From Escherichia coli 042 (GTDB lineage: Bacteria; Pseudomonadota; Gammaproteobacteria; Enterobacterales; Enterobacteriaceae), in the NCBI RefSeq assembly GCF_000027125.1, contig NC_017626.1: a stretch of DNA of 64,000 nucleotides; one strand, 5' to 3'. Below, one piece after another: positions 1,335 to 54,364 of the stretch. Each line of letters begins with the position of its first letter. Position 1 is the stretch's first letter. A model generated the notes under the pieces. It searched no databases and had not been told where the DNA came from. It saw nothing but the letters and a program-made list of their open reading frames with translations. The translations under genes and the position numbers were made by a program.

Positions 1335-2399
1335 ATGGTAACGTCCTGTAGTGGACATGTTTTAGATAATCAACGCGCCACCACTCGCGGAGATTTCTCC
1401 TCCGGTAGTCATCTCGTCACTTTGCATTTTCAACCTCATCCTTTCTTTTCTTGTGTTACCGACGCCGTAAACGGTGCGCGTAGCCGTTTTTCGGCATTTT
1501 ATCCAAAAGCAAACTATGGCTTACAAGGAAGCCAACCCTCTGATGTTCGTGCGCATAATCGCGCTGCCAACGGCGCGTGTGATGAATACAAACAACTCAA
1601 GGTGCTCTCCATGGGAAGACAAAAAGTAGTGATCAAAGCTCGTCGCGAGGCAAAACGTGTGCTGAGACGGGATTCGCGCAGCCATAAGCAGCGTGAAGAA
1701 GAATCGGTCACCTCGCTTGTGCAGATGAGCGGCGTAGAAGCCATTGGTATGGCCCGCGACAGTCGCGATACCTCGCCCATCCTCGCGCGAAATGAAGCGC
1801 AATTGCACTATCTGAAGGCTATTGAGAGTAAGCAGCTGATATTCGCCACGGGCGAAGCCGGGTGCGGAAAAACCTGGATCAGCGCAGCAAAAGCGGCAGA
1901 GGCCCTGATACATAAGGATGTCGACAGGATTATCGTCACCCGTCCAGTTCTGCAAGCCGATGAAGATCTTGGCTTCTTACCTGGAGATATCGCAGAAAAG
2001 TTTGCTCCCTATTTTCGTCCGGTCTACGACGTGCTGGTCCGGCGCTTAGGGGCTTCTTTTATGCAGTACTGCCTGCGACCGGAAATAGGGAAGGTGGAAA
2101 TTGCGCCGTTCGCCTATATGCGTGGACGTACCTTTGAAAATGCAGTCGTCATTCTTGACGAGGCGCAGAATGTGACTGCCGCGCAAATGAAAATGTTTTT
2201 AACCCGCCTCGGGGAGAACGTGACGGTTATCGTCAACGGTGATATCACGCAATGCGATTTGCCTCGCGGCGTGTGCTCCGGATTAAGTGACGCGCTGGAA
2301 CGTTTCGAAGAAGATGAAATGGTCGGCATCGTCCGATTCGGTAAAGAGGATTGCGTACGTTCGGCACTTTGCCAACGTACGCTACATGCATACAGTTAA
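1335..2399 (+). CDS. phoH: PhoH, phosphate-starvation-inducible ATPase
   Basis: 354-aa ORF with Walker A motif GEAGCGKT; PhoH family. Confidence 0.9.
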   Translation: MVTSCSGHVLDNQRATTRGDFSSGSHLVTLHFQPHPFFSCVTDAVNGARSRFSAFYPKANYGLQGSQPSDVRAHNRAANGACDEYKQLKVLSMGRQKVVIKARREAKRVLRRDSRSHKQREEESVTSLVQMSGVEAIGMARDSRDTSPILARNEAQLHYLKAIESKQLIFATGEAGCGKTWISAAKAAEALIHKDVDRIIVTRPVLQADEDLGFLPGDIAEKFAPYFRPVYDVLVRRLGASFMQYCLRPEIGKVEIAPFAYMRGRTFENAVVILDEAQNVTAAQMKMFLTRLGENVTVIVNGDITQCDLPRGVCSGLSDALERFEEDEMVGIVRFGKEDCVRSALCQRTLHAYS

Positions 2400-2417
2400 G
2401 TGTATTATCGGCGCAGA

Positions 2418-2446
2418 GCCCGGGCGAACCGGGCTTTGTTTTATTT
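2418..2446 (+). terminator. Rho-independent terminator after phoH
   Basis: GCCCGGGCGAACCGGGC hairpin followed by a T-run. Confidence 0.7.
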
Positions 2447-2985
2447 CATTAACAGCAAAGACTTTCACTTCAGGTTAACGTTCAGGGGGGCGACTTTGAG
2501 CGTGTTGATAAGCTGAAATGAATTCTGGTTTAGATACTCTTACCAGGCATTTTTCGTCATAGCACCCGACCAGTGTAATGCCGCCAGCGCGGAGAGTTTT
2601 TCTTCCAGAAGCCCAAAAAGCGAGTATCTGCCTATCTTTTTCCAGCCATTCAACCTGTACAGGAGGTCTGGTGCCAATTTTGCGTATGAGGTTTAATCAA
2701 CAATGGGCCAAAATTTGACTGACTGATTAACACCGAATATATTCTCCTGATTTTTTTTAGGGATAATATTAAAAATATAAGGTTAATCTTAATTAATTTT
2801 TTGGCTAATATTGTGTGTTGTTATTTTTTGTGGACGGCAAGCCGCAATGGCAAAATAGGGATGGTTGTAATAATCAAAACATGATACTAACTATATATAG
2901 ATCGTTGAATTGTTGGCATGTAACTCGCTACAGCGAGTAGCGTTAGTAATGAAATATAATCAACATGGATAGGTGAAGATTAATT

Positions 2986-3672
2986 ATGAGCTTTATGGTT
3001 TTTGTAACTTGTTTGACAATTGCATTTGTCGCCGGTTTTGCTGTTGCCAGAAAATTGACACTCCGAAAAGTTGCCTCATCGGTAATCATCACTAAATCGC
3101 AACCAGTCCCTTCCTCTGCAACTTCCCCTGCTGCTAAGGCGTCGACAAGGAGCTATACACCGCAGAAAACCTATCGTGACTCTCGTTGGCAAGAACGAGA
3201 TGAGTTATTTCAGGGAATGGTTGCCGAAGGTATTTTATTGGAAGGAAAAGAGTGGTTAATTACGCGTTGTGAAAAAATCTATTTTGATAATCTGGAGAAA
3301 TGGTTTGGACATTATTGTCATATCCATTGCCAGGTCTCTCTGGGGCGCTTGATCAACTTTCCAGAACAACCCGAGTTTAGCGAAGAAGAAAGAAAGCGTT
3401 TCTTTGCAATTTATAATGGAATGGCAATGGATTATGTTCTGGTTTCAAAGAAGAACAACAAAATAGTCTGTGTTATTGAGCTGGATGATCCGAGTCATGA
3501 AAGGGCAGATCGCATTATTCGTGACCGTTGGTTGAATACGATTATGACTATTGCACGGGTGCCTTTTGTACGAGCTTCTGTCACTAAATTGGATGAAATC
3601 CCTCCGGTCTGGGATACCCGTGACAAAATTCGCCCATTAGCCGTGGCGACAAAGGGTGAACCGTTGCATTAA
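2986..3672 (+). CDS. Hypothetical membrane-anchored protein with a C-terminal DUF2726-like (PD-(D/E)xK nuclease-like) domain
   Basis: 228-aa ORF. N-terminal hydrophobic helix (FMVFVTCLTIAFVAGFAVA), then a Ser/Thr/Pro-rich linker, then a C-terminal domain with the motif VIELDDPSHERADRIIRDRW. Preceded by about 300 bp of AT-rich DNA. Family assignment is from motif recall only. Confidence 0.6.
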   Translation: MSFMVFVTCLTIAFVAGFAVARKLTLRKVASSVIITKSQPVPSSATSPAAKASTRSYTPQKTYRDSRWQERDELFQGMVAEGILLEGKEWLITRCEKIYFDNLEKWFGHYCHIHCQVSLGRLINFPEQPEFSEEERKRFFAIYNGMAMDYVLVSKKNNKIVCVIELDDPSHERADRIIRDRWLNTIMTIARVPFVRASVTKLDEIPPVWDTRDKIRPLAVATKGEPLH

Positions 3673-3765
3673 CTAATGTACCCCGGTCGGGGCTTCTCAT
3701 CCCCCCGGTGTGTGCAATATACGAAAAAAAAAGCCCGTACCTTCGTACGAGCTCTTCTTTAAAGA

Positions 3766-3853
3766 TGGCGGTGAGGGGGGGATTCGAACCCCCGATACGT
3801 TGCCGTATACACACTTTCCAGGCGTGCTCCTTCAGCCACTCGGACACCTCACC
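3766..3853 (-). tRNA. serX: tRNA-Ser (anticodon GGA)
   Basis: Minus-strand 88-nt sequence GGTGAGGTGTCCGAGTGGCTGAAGG...GGTTCGAATCCCCCCCTCACCGCCA, with long variable arm and CCA end. Confidence 0.9.
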
Positions 3854-4047
3854 AAATTGTCGTTCCTGTCTTGCTGGAACGGGCGCTAATTTAGGGAAAT
3901 CATGACCTGAGGTCAACAAACTTTTTTAAAAAATCGCGCGTTTATTCAAACTTCAATCAATATGCAGTTTTAATAAGCGAAATCTGCTTTTTTTGCCACC
4001 GACCACGGATTTGTTATGCTGGTGGTCTTTGTAGATCATAACGATAA

Positions 4048-5025
<978 letters not shown>

Positions 5026-5079
5026 TAAAGCATCAGGTTTCCTGCTATCCTTGGCGGGAATTGAATACAGGAGAGAGTT

Positions 5080-5817
5080 ATGTATCCCGTCGACCTTCAT
5101 ATGCATACCGTTGCCAGCACGCATGCATATAGCACATTGAGTGATTACATTGCCCAGGCCAAACAAAAGGGCATTAAACTTTTTGCGATCACCGATCATG
5201 GCCCGGATATGGAAGATGCGCCGCATCACTGGCACTTCATTAACATGCGTATCTGGCCGCGAGTGGTTGATGGGGTTGGGATCCTGCGCGGCATCGAAGC
5301 TAACATTAAAAATGTTGACGGTGAAATTGACTGCAGTGGCAAAATGTTTGATTCGCTGGATCTGATTATTGCCGGTTTTCATGAGCCGGTGTTTGCGCCG
5401 CATGACAAAGCGACTAATACGCAAGCGATGATCGCCACTATCGCCAGCGGCAATGTGCATATAATAAGCCATCCCGGAAATCCGAAATATGAAATAGATG
5501 TTAAAGCCGTTGCTGAAGCAGCTGCGAAACATCAGGTGGCGCTGGAAATCAATAATTCCTCATTTTTACACTCACGTAAGGGCAGTGAAGACAACTGTCG
5601 TGCGGTAGCCGCAGCGGTACGTGACGCTGGAGGTTGGGTGGCATTAGGTTCGGATTCTCACACCGCGTTTACCATGGGTGAATTTGAAGAGTGTCTTAAA
5701 ATCCTCGACGCGGTAGATTTTCCGCCAGAGCGCATTTTGAATGTTTCTCCGCGCCGCTTACTGAACTTCCTTGAATCTCGCGGTATGGCACCGATTGCGG
5801 AATTTGCAGACCTTTAA
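5080..5817 (+). CDS. ycdX: PHP-family phosphatase YcdX
   Basis: 245 aa, HMHT metal-binding motif typical of the PHP domain. Confidence 0.88.
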
Positions 5818-5840
5818 TTACTAGTAATGGAAATATATTA

Positions 5841-6395
5841 ATGAACGAGTTTTCTATCCTCTGTCGTGTGCTGGGTTCGCTCTATTACCGCCAACCGCAA
5901 GATCCTTTACTGGTGCCGCTGTTTACCCTGATTCGTGAGGGGAAACTGGCTGCGAACTGGCCACTGGAGCAGGATGAGTTACTGACGCGTTTACAGAAAA
6001 GCTGTGATATGGCGCAAGTCTCTGCCGATTACAATGCGTTGTTTATCGGCGATGAATGTGCTGTGCCGCCATATCGTAGCGCATGGGTTGAGGGCGCGAC
6101 GGAAGCGGAAGTGCGCGCTTTTCTTTCCGAACGGGGGATGCCATTAGCGGATACGCCAGCCGATCACATCGGCACATTGCTGCTCGCGGCTTCCTGGCTG
6201 GAAGATCAGTCAACGGAAGATGAGAGCGAAGCACTGGAAACACTGTTCAGTGAGTATCTGTTACCCTGGTGTGGTGCGTTCCTTGGCAAAGTGGAGGCCC
6301 ATGCAACTACGCCTTTCTGGCGCACCATGGCACCGCTAACCCGCGATGCTATTAGTGCAATGTGGGACGAGCTGGAAGAAGATTCTGAAGAGTAA
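5841..6395 (+). CDS. ycdY: Chaperone-like protein YcdY (TorD family)
   Basis: 184 aa, immediately downstream of ycdX. Confidence 0.85.
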   Translation: MNEFSILCRVLGSLYYRQPQDPLLVPLFTLIREGKLAANWPLEQDELLTRLQKSCDMAQVSADYNALFIGDECAVPPYRSAWVEGATEAEVRAFLSERGMPLADTPADHIGTLLLAASWLEDQSTEDESEALETLFSEYLLPWCGAFLGKVEAHATTPFWRTMAPLTRDAISAMWDELEEDSEE

Positions 6396-6496
6396 ATGTG
6401 ATCTGTATCACTCATAACTGCAACAGATAATTTGTTGTTGCATAAAATGTGTGCTCGATCTCATTCATGGCCGCGTTTTCTGCTATCATGCGCGGC

Positions 6497-6988
6497 ATGA
6501 ACATACTTCTCTCTATTGCAATCACAACAGGCATTCTCTCCGGTATCTGGGGATGGGTGGCTGTTTCCCTGGGCTTACTAAGCTGGGCGGGCTTCCTGGG
6601 CTGTACGGCCTACTTTGCCTGCCCGCAAGGTGGGCTGAAAGGGCTGGCGATCTCCGCTGCAACCCTGCTTAGTGGCGTGGTGTGGGCGATGGTCATTATT
6701 TACGGTAGTGCACTGGCACCACATCTGGAAATTCTCGGTTATGTCATAACCGGTATTGTCGCGTTTCTGATGTGTATTCAGGCGAAACAGCTGCTGCTTT
6801 CATTTGTTCCGGGGACGTTTATAGGCGCATGCGCGACGTTTGCCGGGCAGGGTGACTGGAAACTGGTGTTACCTTCGCTGGCGCTTGGACTGGTATTTGG
6901 TTACGCAATGAAAAACAGCGGCCTGTGGCTGGCGGCGCGTAGTACGAAGACCGCTCACCGTGAGCAGCAAATCAAAAATAAAGCGTGA
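6497..6988 (+). CDS. ycdZ: Inner-membrane protein YcdZ (DUF1097)
   Basis: Polytopic hydrophobic ORF; start trimmed to MNILLSIAITTG. Confidence 0.8.
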   Translation: MNILLSIAITTGILSGIWGWVAVSLGLLSWAGFLGCTAYFACPQGGLKGLAISAATLLSGVVWAMVIIYGSALAPHLEILGYVITGIVAFLMCIQAKQLLLSFVPGTFIGACATFAGQGDWKLVLPSLALGLVFGYAMKNSGLWLAARSTKTAHREQQIKNKA

Positions 6989-7051
6989 GGGGCACTCACG
7001 CTTTCGCTTAAACAGTAAAATGCCGGATGATAATTCCGGCATTTTTATCTA

Positions 7052-7885
7052 TCAGGATTCCGGTGGAACCGACATATGGCGGTATTTCACCAGAATGTCA
7101 TTCTGCCGTTCTGCTTTATTTTGCAAATCCCACAGACCACGGTCGATACCATCATTAATCAGGAAAATGACCCCTGTTTCGATAGCCGACATCAGGCACA
7201 GCATCACGGGTTCGTTCGAGGTGTAACCCACTTCCCCTTCCAGCAAGCGCTGATAGTCAATAAAGCGGAAAACCCCGGCCTGAACTTCATAGGAAAGTAT
7301 CGTCTTACTGGTGTTCACCGAGGAGAGGATCTCACCGGTACTCACATTGACGACGCGCAGGTTCACGGCAATCTGATCGAGCTGGTATTGCGTGTCGGCA
7401 CCGATCCCAAAATATCTTGCCCCAACACCGCCCGATTTAACGTTGCTTTCATAACCGATAATCGAACCTTCAACCATGATATTTGCCGCCGTTAAAGATT
7501 GCAGCGGGATTCGGTTATTAATGGCAACCGTGCCGTTTTCTTGTGCCGCACGAATAATCTTGCGCTCGTTAAGCAGGTTTTGTAAGCCCTGGCGCTCCAG
7601 CGGTATAAACCAGCGAGAATCTTTCAATGCCGTGACCAGCATTGCCGTGGCGCTTTGCGGAACAGCAGTGGAGAAGTTACTTGCCGGGTAAGGTTTAAAT
7701 TGCCCGGTTTCGTCCTGAATGTTGTATACCGAAACAAAGATCTTACCCGTCGGCGCTGGCAGATGGGTCAAATCTTTGTAGCTCTGAGCACGAGGCATTA
7801 ATGTCGGTCTGGCGGCTTCTTTAGGCGGGGCGGTTAAGCATCCGCTCAGTAACATGACGGCAACCAAAAGAAATAAGCGCTGCAT
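7052..7885 (-). CDS. csgG: Curli secretion channel lipoprotein CsgG
   Basis: 277 aa, lipoprotein signal (LLSGC), last gene of csgDEFG. Confidence 0.92.
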   Translation of the reverse strand: MQRLFLLVAVMLLSGCLTAPPKEAARPTLMPRAQSYKDLTHLPAPTGKIFVSVYNIQDETGQFKPYPASNFSTAVPQSATAMLVTALKDSRWFIPLERQGLQNLLNERKIIRAAQENGTVAINNRIPLQSLTAANIMVEGSIIGYESNVKSGGVGARYFGIGADTQYQLDQIAVNLRVVNVSTGEILSSVNTSKTILSYEVQAGVFRFIDYQRLLEGEVGYTSNEPVMLCLMSAIETGVIFLINDGIDRGLWDLQNKAERQNDILVKYRHMSVPPES

Positions 7886-7911
7886 GATTATTTTCCTTAT
7901 GAAGCTGGGGC

Positions 7912-8328
7912 TTAAAAATCGGTTGAGTTATTTTGTAAACCCGAAACCTGGATGGTCGAGGTTTGTCCGGTTTTACGATCTGTCACGTTCAACTGCAATT
8001 GACCATCGCGGTTAGCAATATCAACAATATAATCGTTGGTCACCATGCGGCCCGGTTTACCGGTATTAATATTCGACAGTAGCCCACCTAAAATTTGTGA
8101 CTGGATGGCCTGAGTAAAGTTATCTAACGCTGAGGGTGTTTCAATACCATAGTCATCGTTATAGCTCGGATCTTTATACGAGTTTTGTGCCTGGGCGCTA
8201 TTTAATAAAAAAGCGCCATTATTTGGGTTACCACCAAAGTTTGGATTACGGAACTGAAAAGTCATGGTTCCAGCCCAACTTAATGGCGAAATAAGCATGA
8301 GTAGAACTACTGCATGTTTGACACGCAT
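7912..8328 (-). CDS. csgF: Curli assembly protein CsgF
   Basis: 138 aa with signal peptide. Confidence 0.92.
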
Positions 8329-8352
8329 TGCAGCCTCCGAACAATTTTTTAT

Positions 8353-8742
8353 TTAGAATTCATCATGCGCCAAATCGCCCGTACTTAATAACGCCTGATT
8401 TATCTGGCGACGATTTAGTGCTTCTTCAGTTTGAATCAGTGCAAAGACGACAGTTTTTTCGAAGTCTCTTTTCAACGGGAATAAAAAAGTCTGGAAAATA
8501 ACGTCCTGATTGACCGTTATAGTGATCCAGCTTCCCCATCGTGCACTGGGCCTTTCATTAATCGTTAAGTTACCCGTATAGTCACTTTCCCATTTATCAC
8601 TAAAGGCTCGGTAAAAATCATGGCCAATAGATGAAACAGTATGGTCAGTTAACAATCCCGGGACTTCTACCTCAACGGCGTGAAGATTCCCTGCGGCGAA
8701 CAGAAATTCTGCCGCCACAATCCAGCGTAAATAACGTTTCAT
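8353..8742 (-). CDS. csgE: Curli secretion specificity factor CsgE
   Basis: 129 aa with signal peptide. Confidence 0.92.
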
Positions 8743-8746
8743 GGCT

Positions 8747-9397
<651 letters not shown>

Positions 9398-10151
9398 GAT
9401 GAAACCCCGCTTTTTTTATTGATCGCACACCTGACAGCTGCCTCTAAAATAGAAGCACCAGAAGTACTGACAGATGTTGCACTGCTGTGTGTAGTAATAA
9501 ATCAGCCCTAAATGGGTAAAATATAAAACTAATGGATTACATCTGATTTCAATCTAGCCATTACAAATCTTAAATCAAGTGTTAAACATGTAACTAAATG
9601 TAACTCGTTATATTAAAATGTTAAACTTAAGGTTTTATTAAGTTTAGAAATGATAGAAAAGTTGTACATTTGGTTTTTATTGCACAATTTTAAAAAATCA
9701 TACAAATGGTGCTAACTTACTAATAATGCATATAAAAAATATTTCGGTGTAGTCCTTTCGTCATGTAAAACGTTCTTGTTTTTTCTTCACACCTCCGTGG
9801 ACAATTTTTTACTGCAAAAAGACGAGGTTTGTCACGGCTTGTGCGCAAGACATATCGCAGCAATCAGCGACGGGCAAGAAGAATGGCTGTCTGGTGATTT
9901 TTGATTGCGGAAAACGGAGATTTAAAAGAAAACAAAATATTTTTTTGCGTAGATAACAGCGTATTTACGTGGGTTTTAATACTTTGGTATGAACAAAAAA
10001 AGAAAAATACAACGCGCGGGTGAGTTATTAAAAATATTTCCGCAGACATACTTTCCATCGTAACGCAGCGTTAACAAAATACAGGTTGCGTTAACAACCA
10101 AGTTGAAATGATTTAATTTCTTAAGTGTACGACCAGGTCCAGGGTGACAAC
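9398..10151. promoter_or_regulatory. csgD–csgB divergent intergenic regulatory region (csgDEFG and csgBAC promoters, long csgD 5' UTR)
   Basis: About 750 bp of AT-rich non-coding DNA between divergent operons. Established knowledge: one of the most heavily regulated E. coli promoter regions (OmpR, CpxR, IHF, H-NS, RpoS; several sRNAs target the csgD leader). Confidence 0.8.
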
Positions 10152-10607
10152 ATGAAAAACAAATTGTTATTTATGATGTTAACAATACTGGGTGCGCCTG
10201 GGATTGCAGCCGCAGCAGGTTATGATTTAGCTAATTCAGAATATAACTTCGCGGTAAATGAATTGAGTAAGTCTTCATTTAATCAGGCAGCCATAATTGG
10301 TCAAGCTGGGACTAATAATAGTGCTCAGTTACGGCAGGGAGGCTCAAAACTTTTGGCGGTTGTTGCGCAAGAAGGTAGTAGCAATCGGGCAAAGATTGAC
10401 CAGACAGGAGATTATAACCTTGCATATATTGATCAGGCGGGCAGTGCCAACGATGCCAGTATTTCGCAAGGTGCTTATGGTAATACTGCGATGATTATCC
10501 AGAAAGGTTCTGGTAATAAAGCAAATATTACACAGTATGGTACTCAAAAAACGGCAATTGTAGTGCAGAGACAGTCGCAAATGGCAATTCGCGTGACACA
10601 ACGTTAA
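10152..10607 (+). CDS. csgB: Minor curlin / nucleator CsgB
   Basis: 151 aa; start trimmed to MKNKLLFMMLTILG; imperfect amyloid repeats. Confidence 0.92.
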   Translation: MKNKLLFMMLTILGAPGIAAAAGYDLANSEYNFAVNELSKSSFNQAAIIGQAGTNNSAQLRQGGSKLLAVVAQEGSSNRAKIDQTGDYNLAYIDQAGSANDASISQGAYGNTAMIIQKGSGNKANITQYGTQKTAIVVQRQSQMAIRVTQR

Positions 10608-10647
10608 TTACTATTCGACTTTTAAATCAATCCGATGGGGGTTTTAC

Positions 10648-11103
10648 ATGAAACTTTTAAAAGTAGCAGCAATTGCAGCAATCGTATTCTCCGGTAGCGC
10701 TCTGGCAGGTGTTGTTCCTCAGTACGGCGGCGGCGGTAACCACGGTGGTGGCGGTAATAATAGCGGCCCAAATTCAGAGCTGAACATTTACCAGTACGGT
10801 GGCGGTAACTCTGCACTTGCTCTGCAAGCTGACGCCCGTAACTCTGATCTGACCATTACCCAGCACGGCGGCGGTAACGGCGCAGATGTTGGCCAAGGTT
10901 CTGATGACAGCTCAATCGATCTGACTCAGCGTGGCTTCGGTAACAGCGCTACTCTTGATCAGTGGAATGGTAAAGATTCTACTATGACTGTTAAACAGTT
11001 CGGTGGCGGTAACGGTGCTGCTGTTGACCAGACTGCATCTAACTCCAGCGTTAACGTCACTCAGGTTGGCTTTGGTAACAACGCGACCGCTCATCAGTAC
11101 TAA
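10648..11103 (+). CDS. csgA: Major curlin subunit CsgA
   Basis: 151 aa, signal peptide plus five imperfect Q/N-rich repeats (S-x5-Q-x-G-x-G-N-x-A). Confidence 0.95.
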   Translation: MKLLKVAAIAAIVFSGSALAGVVPQYGGGGNHGGGGNNSGPNSELNIYQYGGGNSALALQADARNSDLTITQHGGGNGADVGQGSDDSSIDLTQRGFGNSATLDQWNGKDSTMTVKQFGGGNGAAVDQTASNSSVNVTQVGFGNNATAHQY

Positions 11104-11124
11104 TACATCCTCTGTATTAAAGAA

Positions 11125-11149
11125 ACAGGGCGCAAGCCCTGTTTTTTTT
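11125..11149 (+). terminator. Rho-independent terminator after csgA
   Basis: CAGGGCGCAAGCCCTG hairpin followed by T8. Confidence 0.75.
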
Positions 11150-11161
11150 CGGGAGAAGAAT

Positions 11162-11545
<384 letters not shown>

Positions 11546-11546
11546 G

Positions 11547-11926
<380 letters not shown>

Positions 11927-12020
11927 GTTTCTGAACAACTCACCTTGCTGAGCAGAAAAATGCGATTTAACCAAAAAGCCTGCTGTACACTTAAGAAACA
12001 AGAAGGTGTAAGGAGGCGTT

Positions 12021-12554
12021 ATGAAAACGCGTATTCATGTTGTGCAGGGTGATATTACCAAACTGGCCGTTGATGTGATTGTGAATGCGGCTAATCCGTC
12101 ATTAATGGGAGGCGGCGGCGTCGATGGGGCCATTCATCGCGCAGCGGGTCCGGCTCTGCTGGATGCCTGTTTAAAAGTCAGGCAACAGCAGGGCGATTGC
12201 CCTACGGGGCATGCCGTTATTACGCTTGCAGGCGATCTTTCCGCTAAAGCCGTAGTGCACACCGTCGGGCCAGTCTGGCGTGGTGGTGAACAAAACGAAG
12301 ACCAGCTTTTGCAGGATGCCTATCTCAATAGTCTGCGACTGGTGGCGGCAAACAGCTATACGTCAGTGGCATTTCCTGCAATCAGTACTGGGGTTTATGG
12401 TTACCCTCGTGCGGCAGCGGCTGAAATCGCAGTAAAAACCGTTTCAGAATTTATTACCCGTCACGCTTTACCCGAACAGGTATACTTTGTCTGTTATGAT
12501 GAAGAAAACACCCACCTCTACGAAAGACTCCTTACCCAACAAGGAGATGAATGA
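12021..12554 (+). CDS. ymdB: Macrodomain O-acetyl-ADP-ribose deacetylase YmdB
   Basis: 177 aa, macro-domain motifs ([23 protein letters not shown]). Confidence 0.9.
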
Positions 12555-13977
12555 TTTGCCCCGGCTGGCGAGCGCGGTGCTGCCACTGTGTTCGCAACAT
12601 CCCGGTCAGTGTGGCCTTTTTCCTCTGGAGAAAAGTCTGGATGCGTTTGCCGCCCGGTATCGTCTGGCCGAAATGGCAGAGCATACGCTGGATGTTCAGT
12701 ATTACATCTGGCAGGACGATATGTCGGGTCGGTTACTCTTTTCCGCCCTGTTAGCCGCAGCAAAGCGTGGCGTTCGCGTCCGTTTGTTGCTGGACGACAA
12801 CAATACGCCCGGACTTGACGACATTTTACGCTTGCTTGACAGTCATCCCCGCATTGAAGTCCGGCTTTTTAATCCTTTCTCGTTTCGCTTGCTACGTCCG
12901 CTTGGTTATATCACCGACTTTTCCCGTCTCAATCGCCGTATGCACAATAAAAGTTTCACTGTCGATGGCGTGGTGACGCTGGTAGGGGGGCGAAATATTG
13001 GTGATGCCTATTTTGGGGCAGGGGAAGAGCCACTTTTTTCGGATTTAGATGTCATGGCAATAGGACCAGTTGTAGAGGACGTTGCCGATGATTTCGCCCG
13101 CTACTGGTATTGCAAATCGGTTTCACCCTTACAGCAGGTGCTGGATGTCCCGGAAGGTGAAATGGCGGATCGCATCGAGTTACCAGCATCCTGGCACAAC
13201 GATGCCATGACGCATCGTTATTTACGCAAAATGGAATCCAGCCCGTTTATAAATCATCTGGTTGATGGAACGTTGCCGCTTATCTGGGCGAAAACACGTT
13301 TATTAAGTGATGATCCGGCGAAAGGGGAAGGCAAGGCAAAACGGCATTCACTGTTACCGCAGCGCCTGTTCGATATCATGGGCTCACCCAGTGAACGCAT
13401 CGATATTATCTCTTCCTATTTTGTACCGACACGCGCAGGTGTGGCGCAACTCTTACGGATGGTGAGAAAAGGGGTAAAGATTGCGATCCTAACCAATTCT
13501 CTTGCCGCTAACGATGTTGCTGTCGTCCATGCCGGATACGCACGCTGGCGCAAAAAATTGCTCCGCTACGGCGTGGAATTATATGAACTCAAGCCGACGC
13601 GTGAACAAAGTAGTACGTTACACGATCGCGGCATAACCGGTAATTCCGGTGCCAGCCTGCATGCTAAAACCTTTAGCATCGATGGTAAAACGGTGTTTAT
13701 CGGCTCTTTCAATTTCGATCCGCGTTCGACATTGCTCAATACTGAAATGGGGTTCGTGATAGAGAGCGAAACGCTGGCACAGTTAATTGATAAACGCTTT
13801 ATTCAGAGCCAGTATGATGCGGCCTGGCAGCTCCGTCTGGACAGGTGGGGACGGATCAACTGGGTTGATCGTCATGCAAAGAAAGAAATTGTTCTCAAAA
13901 AAGAACCCGCCACCAGTTTCTGGAAGCGGGTTATGGTCAGACTGGCATCGATATTGCCCGTGGAATGGTTATTATAA
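12547..13977 (+). CDS. clsC: Cardiolipin synthase C (phospholipase D family)
   Basis: Two HxK(x4)D motifs (HNKSFTVDG and HAKTFSIDG). Start set at the ATG overlapping the ymdB stop; exact start uncertain (ORF track starts at 12487). Confidence 0.85.
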
Positions 13978-13984
13978 ACGCGGC

Positions 13985-15142
13985 TTAACGGGCTGGTGCT
14001 TTATCGTTCTCACGCTTAACAACCGGTTTACCAGAGAACAAAAACTTCAGTAACGGGATGCGTAAATGAATTTCATACAGAATTATCGCAATCCCTACTA
14101 CGAATATCAGGCCACAGAGAAAACCAAGCCAGTTGGATGTGATGTGCGGTGTAATGTACGCGCCGAAAAACAGAGTTAACGGGTGGTGAACCAGATAGAT
14201 AAACAGCGATGCATTAACAAAGTAAGTCACCCGCGCTGACTGGAAGTTAAGCAAACGGTGGCCGAAGGAGAAGACCACATTCACCATCCACAGACCGAGG
14301 ACCATGGTGATCACCGACTCGGTTTCGTACATCCAGGCATCGCCACTGCCATAGCGCTGGTTGAGTAAGTAAGCGACAAATGCCAATGCTGCTGCAAGGG
14401 TACAGCCACGAGACGGCGTGGTAAACAAGGTTTTAAGATGAGGGAAAATGAAAGCCAGTGCGCCGAGGATAAAGAACGGCAAATAAAATAGCGTTTGCAT
14501 GACAATAAAATTGAACATGCCGTTACTCAGAATGGGCGGATACACAATAAAAATCGTTCTTCTTATTACCGCATAGCCGATGCCGAGGCACAAAAAAATC
14601 ACCGATAGTTTTACCATCGAGAATTTTTTATTCGTTTTATCAGAATTTTCTAAATTATTTCTGATGCGTTTAAATATCCATACGCACAGCGTCGTCATGA
14701 CTACTAACACCAGTAAAAACCACAGGTGTGATATTAATTCCCAGGCCAACGTATTATATTTGTCATACAATGACAGGCCAGGCCAACTTTCCGCTTTCCC
14801 TTTGACGTATTGCAGCATAATAAATTGCGGTAATGTCAGTAGGGGGATGGCTGTTAACATCGGGATACCTACACGTTCGACACGTACTTTCCACCATTTT
14901 TTCAAGGGATAGCGTAAAAAAAGCATGTAGGAAAAGTACCCGGATATAACGAAAAATACCTGCATGCGGAACGAGTGGATGAAGTCATTAAAAAGGGTCA
15001 GCCACAATGACGGTTCGGCGCTATTCACATGCCATGTATGGCTCGAATAGATTAAAGAAATATGAAAAGGGATCCCTAACAACATCAGCCAGGCGCGGAT
15101 GGAGTCGAGGAAATATTCACGTTGCGCGGGTACTGGATTCAT
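13985..15142 (-). CDS. opgC: OPG (glucan) succinyltransferase OpgC
   Basis: 385-aa polytopic membrane acyltransferase-3 family protein. Confidence 0.88.
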
Positions 15143-40762: not shown

Positions 40763-40880
40763 TTGAACGATTGATGACATTGCAATAAAAGCGCGCGGAC
40801 TATTCTCTCGCCTATTTTGGGAGAGGTTAGGGTGAGGGGAAATTCGCACCGTCGCGTGCTTCTGCTTTGCTTGTCACTAA

Positions 40881-47156: not shown

Positions 47157-47249
47157 GCTCGCTTTAAAACATATCATGAAACTGGGTATGTTTTCTCTGC
47201 CTGCTCTGGGATCGCCGGGGCGGGCATTTTTTGCATGAGACATAACGAA

Positions 47250-48034
<785 letters not shown>

Positions 48035-48120
48035 AAATATATCCTTCGGCTTTGCATGGATGATAATTATACAGCGCATGTAACGCTAATGTCATTACAA
48101 CAAAGATGCTACCCTGAAAT

Positions 48121-52932: not shown

Positions 52933-53687
<755 letters not shown>

Positions 53688-53791
53688 ATCAGCATACTTG
53701 TCCTTAGCCTTCTGCAGTGACAGCTGGTAGTACAGCGTGCTTCTGGCCAGCCCTGCAGCCTTTAACAGGTCAGACTGGCAGTGTCCGCACC

Positions 53792-54322
53792 TCAGGCTCC
53801 GGATGACTTTCGTTTTTTCTCCAGCTCCTGGCGCTTTTTTTCCAGGAGATGCTCCTGCATGGCTTTCAGATATGCATTTTCTGCGCGAAGATAACGCAGC
53901 TCATTCTTCATCTCTTCCGGCGTCATGTTTGCCTCGTTTTCATGGGTATCATCAGAACGGGTCATGCTTTTCTCCTTCCTGCGCCTGATAAAGGCCTCAT
54001 TACCAGATTTGCGGTAGCCTTTTATCCAGTTTTTAACCGTGTTGTGGCTGGGAATGTTAAACCGGGCAGCTACCCGGGGTAGAGACTCAGAATGCCCGAG
54101 AGCATAAAGAACCACGCAAAGTTTATCTTCAGGAGAATAGCTACGCTTGTGTCTGCAATCCAGTGCCCGAGGACCGTGAAGAAGAAAAAGATTAATCCAG
54201 TGTGAGAGGCTGGTGTGAGAAAGTTGAAAGAGTTTTGCCGTAGAAATGATGCCTGCATGACCAGCCAGGTAATGATTTACAGCGGCAAGTTTTACTTCAA
54301 ATGAATGTTTCATAAACTGCAC
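53792..54322 (-). CDS. IS3-family transposase OrfA (HTH DNA-binding subunit)
   Basis: 176 aa with a leucine-zipper-like C-terminus; slippery A AAA AAG near the 3' end for a -1 frameshift into orfB. Confidence 0.85.
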   Translation of the reverse strand: MQFMKHSFEVKLAAVNHYLAGHAGIISTAKLFQLSHTSLSHWINLFLLHGPRALDCRHKRSYSPEDKLCVVLYALGHSESLPRVAARFNIPSHNTVKNWIKGYRKSGNEAFIRRRKEKSMTRSDDTHENEANMTPEEMKNELRYLRAENAYLKAMQEHLLEKKRQELEKKRKSSGA

Positions 54323-54364
54323 CTTCAGATGTCAGATTATGTCCAACATTTGGGGTGCAGTTCA

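Follow-up and report, generated by a model that had tools for sequence, protein, structure and literature searches.

A two-state locus between phoH and serX in Escherichia coli: a DUF2726 gene cassette as the probable ancestral alternative to the pga block

Introduction

In Escherichia coli K-12, the interval between phoH and serX holds the pga operon and its neighbours. In E. coli 042, the same interval holds a short AT-rich segment with one ORF. This raises the question of which arrangement is the older one, and what the ORF encodes.

The presence/absence difference at pga, including the pga-free state, is already known in substance. According to the passages of two papers that concern this locus, strains Tob1, Fec101 and B-8638 possess no pga, no ycdT and no IS between phoH and serX (Cimdins et al. 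2017, PMC5635171), and pga-ycdT-IS-ymdE-ycdU forms a "genome island" that 10-20% of phylogroup A lacks (Goldstone et al. 2016, PMC4951805). In the passages of these papers on pga, ycdT, phoH and serX, no description of the occupant of the pga-less site was found. The ORF itself is annotated in public genomes.

We analyzed a 64,000-nucleotide stretch of E. coli 042 (contig NC_017626.1), which is called the window below. An earlier interpretation made from its letters alone (the sequence-only reading) had attributed the AT-rich segment to horizontal acquisition at the serX hotspot.

Results

The interval in the window and in K-12

The window starts inside efeB, and this gene is followed by phoH, a spacer, an ORF of 228 amino acids, serX, ghrA, ycdX, ycdY, ycdZ and csgGFED (Table 1). 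It is thus an example of the published pga-absent state, with the same locus and the same flanks (efeB/phoH on one side and serX/ghrA/ycdXYZ on the other). By blastn against MG1655, both flanks were colinear with K-12, with 96.4% identity over positions 1-2442 and 97.7% over 3680-6000. The left breakpoint was found at 2442/2443, where the phoH terminator has its T run, and the right breakpoint at 3679/3680, 7 bp past the ORF stop, where the serX-downstream DNA starts. The DNA unique to the window is therefore a cassette of 1,237 bp (2443-3679). Its ORF stop (3672) lies 94 bp from the serX 3' end (3766).

Table 1. Features around the cassette in the window
Feature	Position	Strand	Remarks
phoH	1335..2399	+	ORF list; stop at 2399; conserved left flank
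phoH, RefSeq version	start 1611		262 aa; RefSeq annotation of an identical genome
phoH intrinsic terminator	2413..2449	+	11-bp stem, then T run; terminator scan
Spacer between phoH and ORF	2400-2985		586 bp
Cassette, left non-coding part	2443..2700	.	44.6% GC; kept in Escherichia, no Salmonella counterpart
AT-rich region 5' of ORF	2701..2985	+	31.2% GC
DUF2726 ORF	2986..3672	+	228 aa
serX-downstream conserved DNA	3680..3765	-	includes serX terminator hairpin and T run at about 3724-3752 (minus-strand reading)
serX, tRNA-Ser(GGA)	3766..3853	-	ARAGORN; Rfam tRNA match; 3' end faces the cassette

Between the equivalent points, K-12 possesses 11,380 bp (positions 2601-13980 of the K-12 locus sequence, L001) with pgaD, pgaC, pgaB, pgaA, dgcT (ycdT), IS3D, ymdE, ycdU and 3.4 copies of a 181-bp tandem repeat. 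No similarity between the 1,237-bp segment and the K-12 locus was detected, and no remnant of the cassette was found in the K-12 locus. When the whole 64 kb was searched with the K-12 pga region by blastn and tblastx, no pga sequence was detected, and the K-12-specific DNA had no counterpart except the repeat unit. A tblastx match at about 53 kb was considered as a paralogue of DgcT and turned out to be an IS3-family transposase.

The sequence-only reading had described an AT-rich segment with one ORF in the place of pga-ycdT-IS3-ycdU, and had given the K-12 interval as about 11 kb including the PGA operon. Gene order and alignment agree with both statements. It had named two findings that would speak against it, namely pga genes lying just outside the interval and the same ORF occurring in K-12-like genomes; there is no pga sequence anywhere in the 64 kb, and the MG1655 interval contains the pga block and lacks the cassette. 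Of the limits that it gave to the segment, the start at 2447 lies within 5 bp of the left breakpoint, whereas the end at 3766 is the serX 3' end and has to be moved back to 3679, where the unique DNA stops.

Distribution of the two states in E. coli

The two states were counted in 5,426 complete E. coli genomes, and the cassette was scored as present at a coverage of at least 80%. It was detected in 1,043 genomes. The K-12-type phoH-pgaD junction was detected in 4,381, and one further genome, strain E8, possesses a chimeric junction. These three classes account for 5,425 of the 5,426 genomes. pgaC was found in 4,382 genomes, which is the number of genomes with the pga junction plus E8. Therefore, the locus is a clean dimorphism, and the genomes with the cassette do not carry pga elsewhere.

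In strain E8, only the 2443-2700 part of the cassette is kept, and it is fused to pgaD. This hybrid was considered as an intermediate of the original replacement. Since it occurs in a single genome, it is better regarded as the product of a one-off illegitimate recombination.

Haplotypes at least 99% identical to the window were found in 174 genomes, among them strains with the names O17 and UPEC69. The 95-99% class comprised 201 genomes, including APEC strains, PCN033 and EPEC E2348/69, and the 90-95% class comprised 676 genomes, including O111:H8, ETEC and many animal isolates. Thus, both states are spread over deep lineages. The left junction is identical in all pga-type genomes, and this shared junction indicates that one founding replacement event would have given rise to them.

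Since a genome contains one version or the other, the strain analyzed here is predicted to be without PGA. The sequence-only reading had made the same prediction, and it is well supported by the absence of pga from the 64 kb and by the complementary occurrence of the cassette and pgaC across the 5,426 genomes.

Polarity of the two states

The window and the E. albertii type strain are collinear over this locus (efeB-phoH-spacer-ORF-serX-ghrA), and the E. albertii ORF shows 88% amino-acid identity. In an Escherichia sp. genome, phoH is likewise followed by the ORF, with 94% identity. In Salmonella enterica, the orthologue has 219 amino acids and lies directly downstream of phoH; its identity is 72% overall and much higher in the domain. 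The order in S. enterica is putA-putP-phoH-ORF-(IS or island)-serX-ghrA-ycdX-ycdY-ycdZ-csgG.

In its synonymous divergence, the ORF is in line with phoH, ghrA and ycdX. Against E. albertii, dS was 0.37 for the ORF, 0.34 for phoH, 0.67 for ghrA and 0.70 for ycdX. Against Salmonella, the values were about 3.5 (saturated), 2.0, saturated and 3.7, respectively. The GC content at third codon positions of the ORF (GC3) was 37-41% in all three taxa compared. Thus, the AT-richness is old, and is not a sign of recent arrival.

Neither an integrase nor another mobility gene was found in 2443-3679, where the DUF2726 gene is the only ORF with coding support. A second copy of the 24-nucleotide serX 3' end was not detected in the window, even when three mismatches were allowed, and the best direct repeat was a weak one of 12 nucleotides with 10/12 positions matching. 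Integrase-bearing islands are present in E2348/69 and O111:H8, and they are located between the ORF and serX. Thus, the ORF is on the backbone side of the attachment site.

As for the alternative state, the PgaD homologues with at least 72% identity were all from E. coli, among those with a named source. The next named relative is from Citrobacter, with 56% identity and in an unrelated context. The surroundings of pgaD in Citrobacter sp. NCU1, the closest one outside E. coli, gave no clue to a donor arrangement.

On the basis of outgroup synteny and divergence, the cassette would be the ancestral backbone, and the pga-dgcT-ycdU block an acquired replacement. The sequence-only reading had assumed the opposite, namely that pga is normally there and that the segment had taken its place. 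We reverse this polarity because of the synteny, the dS values, the lack of an integrase and of att repeats, the position of the islands and the confinement of close PgaD homologues, where the source is named, to E. coli.

In a scan with one genome per species, no Salmonella locus was found. This suggests that the gene has been lost in Salmonella too, and that it is not fixed there. The Salmonella interval is also a hotspot, with, for example, the STM1127-1131 ManNAc island (PMC11745405). STM1127 was examined as a candidate for the present gene and was rejected, as it is the MurR-type repressor of that different island in the same hotspot. Close orthologues of the ORF were found only in Escherichia and Salmonella. 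For the other enterics, this means either loss there or acquisition in the Escherichia/Salmonella lineage.

Base composition and non-coding DNA of the cassette

The GC content of 2443-3679 is 40.5%, as compared with 50.5% in the window, and falls in the lowest 2% of segments of the same size. The sequence-only reading had called the spacer of about 600 bp strongly AT-rich; this holds for 2701-2985 (31.2%), but not for 2443-2700 (44.6%). The ORF has 42.9%. The GC content of the K-12 pga block is also low (33-48%). The composition thus cannot tell the two states of the locus apart, because the K-12 alternative is AT-rich too. In a scan for the high-affinity H-NS motif, no enrichment was found (22 matches against 17.6 expected), and one site with one mismatch is in the cassette; this speaks neither for nor against H-NS silencing.

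In the alignment of the intergenic DNA, 2443-2700 differs between Escherichia species by indels whose lengths are not divisible by 3. The short ORFs of 41-46 amino acids in 2443-2940 are not conserved. The possibility that 2443-2700 is a diverged 3' end of pgaD or another gene remnant was rejected on account of these indels, the lack of tblastn similarity to PgaD and the lack of a cassette remnant in K-12.

A TATAAT (-10-like) is located at 2955-2960, and an AGGTGA (Shine-Dalgarno-like) at 2971-2976. In the intergenic alignment, the only block of the spacer that is kept into Salmonella lies around this TATAAT and the start codon. TATAAT 2955-2960 is a putative promoter element of the ORF. A generic promoter scan listed sites other than this one. 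An Rfam search over 2300-4100 gave the tRNA and otherwise sub-threshold matches only, and no RtT or other sRNA was detected in the cassette.

The DUF2726 protein

In RefSeq, the ORF is a DUF2726 domain-containing protein (WP_001305896.1). The Pfam PF10881 match covers residues 90-205 (E = 2.8e-18; profile positions 3-116 of 126). The protein consists of a transmembrane anchor (residues ~3-24, with a strong hydrophobic window of 19 residues from residue 3), a disordered linker rich in Ser, Thr and Pro (~27-60) and the DUF2726 domain (~65-228). In the AlphaFold2 model, residues 3-30 form a helix, 27-56 are disordered, and the alpha/beta domain is predicted with confidence (pLDDT ~90). This model and the matches to the fold assign the domain to the restriction-endonuclease-like alpha/beta fold. 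In the subfamily alignment, nearly all members possess an N-terminal hydrophobic helix, then basic residues, and then a variable linker rich in Ser, Thr and Pro. By the positive-inside rule, the domain would be cytoplasmic and tethered to the inner membrane.

Among 18 subfamily members, no variation was seen at E96, W106, E165, D168, H171, R176, R179 and D180, and D149 is nearly invariant. D149, E165, D168, H171 and D180 would be equivalent to the catalytic residues of Vsr/EDxHD enzymes. The dN/dS against E. albertii was 0.16 overall and 0.07 in the domain, and against Salmonella it was 0.05. The ORF is full-length and intact in every allele inspected from all three taxa. As judged from these sequence comparisons, the gene is real and under selection.

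Within the PD-(D/E)XK phosphodiesterase superfamily, DUF2726 (PF10881) is placed in the Vsr/DUF559 group (Steczkiewicz et al. 2012, PMC3424549). Structural relatives are Vsr (1cw0), the homing endonuclease I-Bth0305I (3r3p) and NGO0050 (3hrl). Unlike the soluble Vsr and homing endonucleases, the subfamily of the ORF possesses a membrane anchor at the N terminus as well as a disordered linker. Furthermore, the ORF has neither a partner methyltransferase nor an intron context, in contrast to these enzymes.

The close subfamily comprises 25 clusters (E <= 1e-30), and DUF2726 as a whole comprises 5,658. In ICE-like regions of Dickeya and E. coli, homologues with 37-50% identity have TraG_N on one side and a recombinase on the other, and one of the same identity class, from Erwinia, adjoins VgrG in a T6SS-adjacent context. 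These contexts are hints to a role in DNA traffic or conflict and to an ancient mobile origin. The search of PADLOC-DB v2 with the ORF gave 0 families at E <= 1, the NCBIfam search gave no match, and neither did the profile search against PDB sequences. In PHROGs, the ORF matched only a family of unknown function. A demonstrated function for any DUF2726 member was not found in the searchable literature. Considering the fold, the residues, the architecture and the contexts of the relatives, we propose, with low to moderate confidence, that the protein may be a metal-dependent nuclease or nickase that is tethered to the membrane and acts at its inner face.

Discussion

We consider it probable (about 0.8) that the window represents the ancestral state of a two-state locus, with a history and an ORF role as follows. 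The common ancestor of Escherichia and Salmonella would have possessed phoH, then a gene for a small membrane-anchored DUF2726 protein, and then serX. Early in E. coli, a single event would have swapped the stretch from the phoH terminator to the DNA downstream of serX for the pgaABCD-dgcT-ymdE-ycdU block, and the DUF2726 gene would have been deleted by this replacement. Since they share their conserved flanks, both versions would then have persisted across the phylogroups, passed on vertically and probably also exchanged through homologous recombination in these flanks. The dimorphism, the synteny and the divergence pattern are results of the comparisons; the single replacement and the recombinational spread are inferred. 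The product of the ORF is predicted to be anchored in the inner membrane and to expose only 2 residues on the outer side, and a flexible linker would connect the anchor to a cytoplasmic Vsr/EDxHD-like PD-(D/E)XK nuclease domain with intact catalytic-type residues. Most likely, the protein would cleave or nick nucleic acid in an Mg-dependent manner where the membrane faces the cytoplasm, and possible substrates are DNAs that enter by conjugation, transformation or infection.

Following the sequence-only reading, the segment would be a recent, H-NS-silenced AT-rich islet that had integrated at the serX 3' end and displaced the pga region. The low GC content (40.5% against 50.5%), the proximity (within 94 bp) to a proven integration hotspot, namely a tRNA 3' end, and the relatives of the ORF in ICE-like elements are in its favour. 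However, the cassette contains no integrase or other mobility gene, there is no second serX 3' end beyond the weak 12-nucleotide similarity (10/12), and where genuine islands are present at serX, they lie between it and the ORF. Moreover, syntenic orthologues exist in E. albertii and Salmonella with the dS of the flanking core genes, and the pga alternative is AT-rich as well and restricted to E. coli. As far as a recent event is concerned, this reading is thus largely refuted, and we regard it as very improbable. Scarcely more probable is that the ORF is a decaying, functionless remnant and the cassette what was left where no island landed. The gene has no known function and no NCBIfam or PADLOC match, 81% of E. 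coli genomes have dispensed with it at no obvious cost, and it is apparently absent from Salmonella in the one-genome-per-species collection. Against this stand the dN/dS of 0.05-0.16 (at most 0.07 in the domain), the intact full length of every inspected allele, the invariance of the catalytic-type residues across the subfamily, and the conservation of the start region and the -10-like element into Salmonella.

It is possible, albeit on the unlikely side, that the ORF is an ancient relic, that is, the last cargo gene of an ICE or island that occupied serX before the divergence of Escherichia and Salmonella and has since been domesticated. The AT-richness is stable (GC3 37-41% in all three taxa), homologues of 37-50% identity are found in the ICE-like regions of Dickeya and E. 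coli and beside VgrG in Erwinia, close orthologues are confined to Escherichia and Salmonella, and the cassette adjoins the tRNA hotspot. Remnants of other element genes or of att sites are lacking, however, 2443-2700 has no coding signal, and simple vertical ancestry fits the present data equally. An ancient mobile origin of the ORF is plausible, and it is compatible with the ancestral-state explanation as its deeper history. A more far-reaching suggestion is that the protein acts as a membrane-tethered nuclease against incoming conjugative, transforming or phage DNA, that it has been selected since before the Escherichia–Salmonella split, and that the two states correspond to two lifestyles rather than to neutral variants. 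We regard this as doubtful. If it were true, most E. coli would have given up the DUF2726 protein when the PGA operon replaced it.

PAI-CFT073-serX and SpLE1 of O157 Sakai are serX-linked genomic islands. The serX islands of E2348/69 and O111:H8 resemble the cassette in that both adjoin the serX 3' end and have a GC content below that of the genome. The cassette differs from them in having no integrase and no att repeats and in not being sporadic at this locus across genera, and it is outside these islands, beyond the point at which they insert. With regard to the usual marks of an island, adjacency to a tRNA 3' end and atypical composition were found for the cassette, but an integrase, att repeats, and absence from outgroups or discordant divergence were not.

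What the present analysis adds to the known pga-free state is that the alternative is a defined cassette of 1,237 bp with a conserved gene, that E. albertii and Salmonella possess the orthologous arrangement, that the partition into two states is near-perfect (5,425/5,426 genomes), and that the polarity of the locus probably has to be corrected. About 19% of complete E. coli genomes, including ST69-like strains, APEC, E2348/69 and many A/B1 strains, are predicted to be genetically unable to make PGA/PNAG, and they are without the diguanylate cyclase DgcT. This is relevant to biofilm studies and to vaccines or antibodies that target PNAG. The locus also suggests that the content of K-12 is not always ancestral and that AT-rich DNA flanking a tRNA gene is not always incoming. 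The gene for an uncharacterised, membrane-anchored, nuclease-like protein is strongly conserved and missing from K-12; it would have escaped study because K-12 lacks it. In our view, this protein is the only route to something new at the locus.

A minor observation concerns the DNA at the right edge of the cassette. Tandem repeats of the RtT type downstream of tRNA genes are known from the tyrT locus. Positions 3680-3784 of the window (105 bp) correspond to that part of the 181-bp RtT-type unit in which the serX 3' end and the DNA downstream of it are located. The window possesses a single copy and no array, whereas 3.4 copies are present in K-12, about 3 in E. albertii and 2 in APEC17 and O111:H8. 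In other strains, PGAP annotates an "RtT sRNA" downstream of serX.

Islands and repeats at the serX attachment site

In E. coli strains of the cassette type, tyrosine-recombinase islands sit between the DUF2726 gene and serX, as found in E2348/69 (L013 6472-7689) and in O111:H8 (L019 4844-6046). Thus, the serX attachment site is actively used in cassette-type strains. The content of the DUF2726-serX interval also differs among the Salmonella enterica strains compared (L006-L011); an rve-type transposase and a T6SS-related block (ImpA_N/VasL) are among the elements found there. Although the DUF2726 ORF of these Salmonella loci is often called as a 151-aa product, the full frame of 219 aa is intact.

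On the downstream side of serX, strains other than that of the window carry a 181-bp unit in 2-3.4 tandem copies, to which PGAP gives the label "RtT sRNA". The unit combines 86 bp from downstream of serX with the final 19 nt of the gene itself and a 76-bp spacer. The window possesses a single copy of the unit (3680-3784) and no array.

Cassette sequences in other contexts

A unique chimera of the cassette and pgaD was detected in E. coli E8 (NZ_CP104526.1, L012 9001-9481). Here, the cassette is represented by its initial 240 bp, corresponding to window positions 2443-2682, which are joined to pgaD after codon 81; this is followed by an IS1-mediated deletion from pgaC to ycdU. This junction was present only in E8 among the 5,426 complete E. 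coli genomes (1/5,426).

The 1,450-bp contig JAIJJM010000775.1 (L003), which is filed under a Collinsella sp. metagenome-assembled genome, is 99.9% identical to window positions 2225-3674. This contig is almost certainly E. coli DNA that was placed in the wrong genome bin.

Other differences between the window and K-12

Comparison with K-12 revealed extra DNA in two intervals of the window. The flgL-rne gap is 882 bp (47233-48114), versus 66 bp in K-12, and contains two ORFs, a TacA-like antitoxin and a GNAT acetyltransferase, that look like a toxin-antitoxin pair of the TacAT/AtaRT type. In the rluC-yceF interval, there is a 1.43-kb insertion sequence of the IS3 family (52933-54364), which K-12 does not possess.

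Coordinates of the ORFs in the flgL-rne and rluC-yceF intervals and of the 181-bp tandem arrays
Feature	Locus	Coordinates	Strand	Remarks
TacA-like antitoxin	Window	47741-48079	minus	Pfam PF08681, E = 2.4e-26
GNAT acetyltransferase ORF	Window	47250-47759	minus	Overlaps the TacA-like antitoxin ORF
orfA of the rluC-yceF IS3-family element	Window	53792-54322	minus	
orfB of the rluC-yceF IS3-family element	Window	52965-53687	minus	
181-bp tandem array	K-12 (L001)	13462-14084		Arrays also in L019 (O111:H8) and L020
181-bp tandem array	E. albertii (L005)	8694-9164		

A small length change was observed in the flgF-flgG intergenic region (window 40780-40870), which is 91 bp, versus about 125 bp in K-12.
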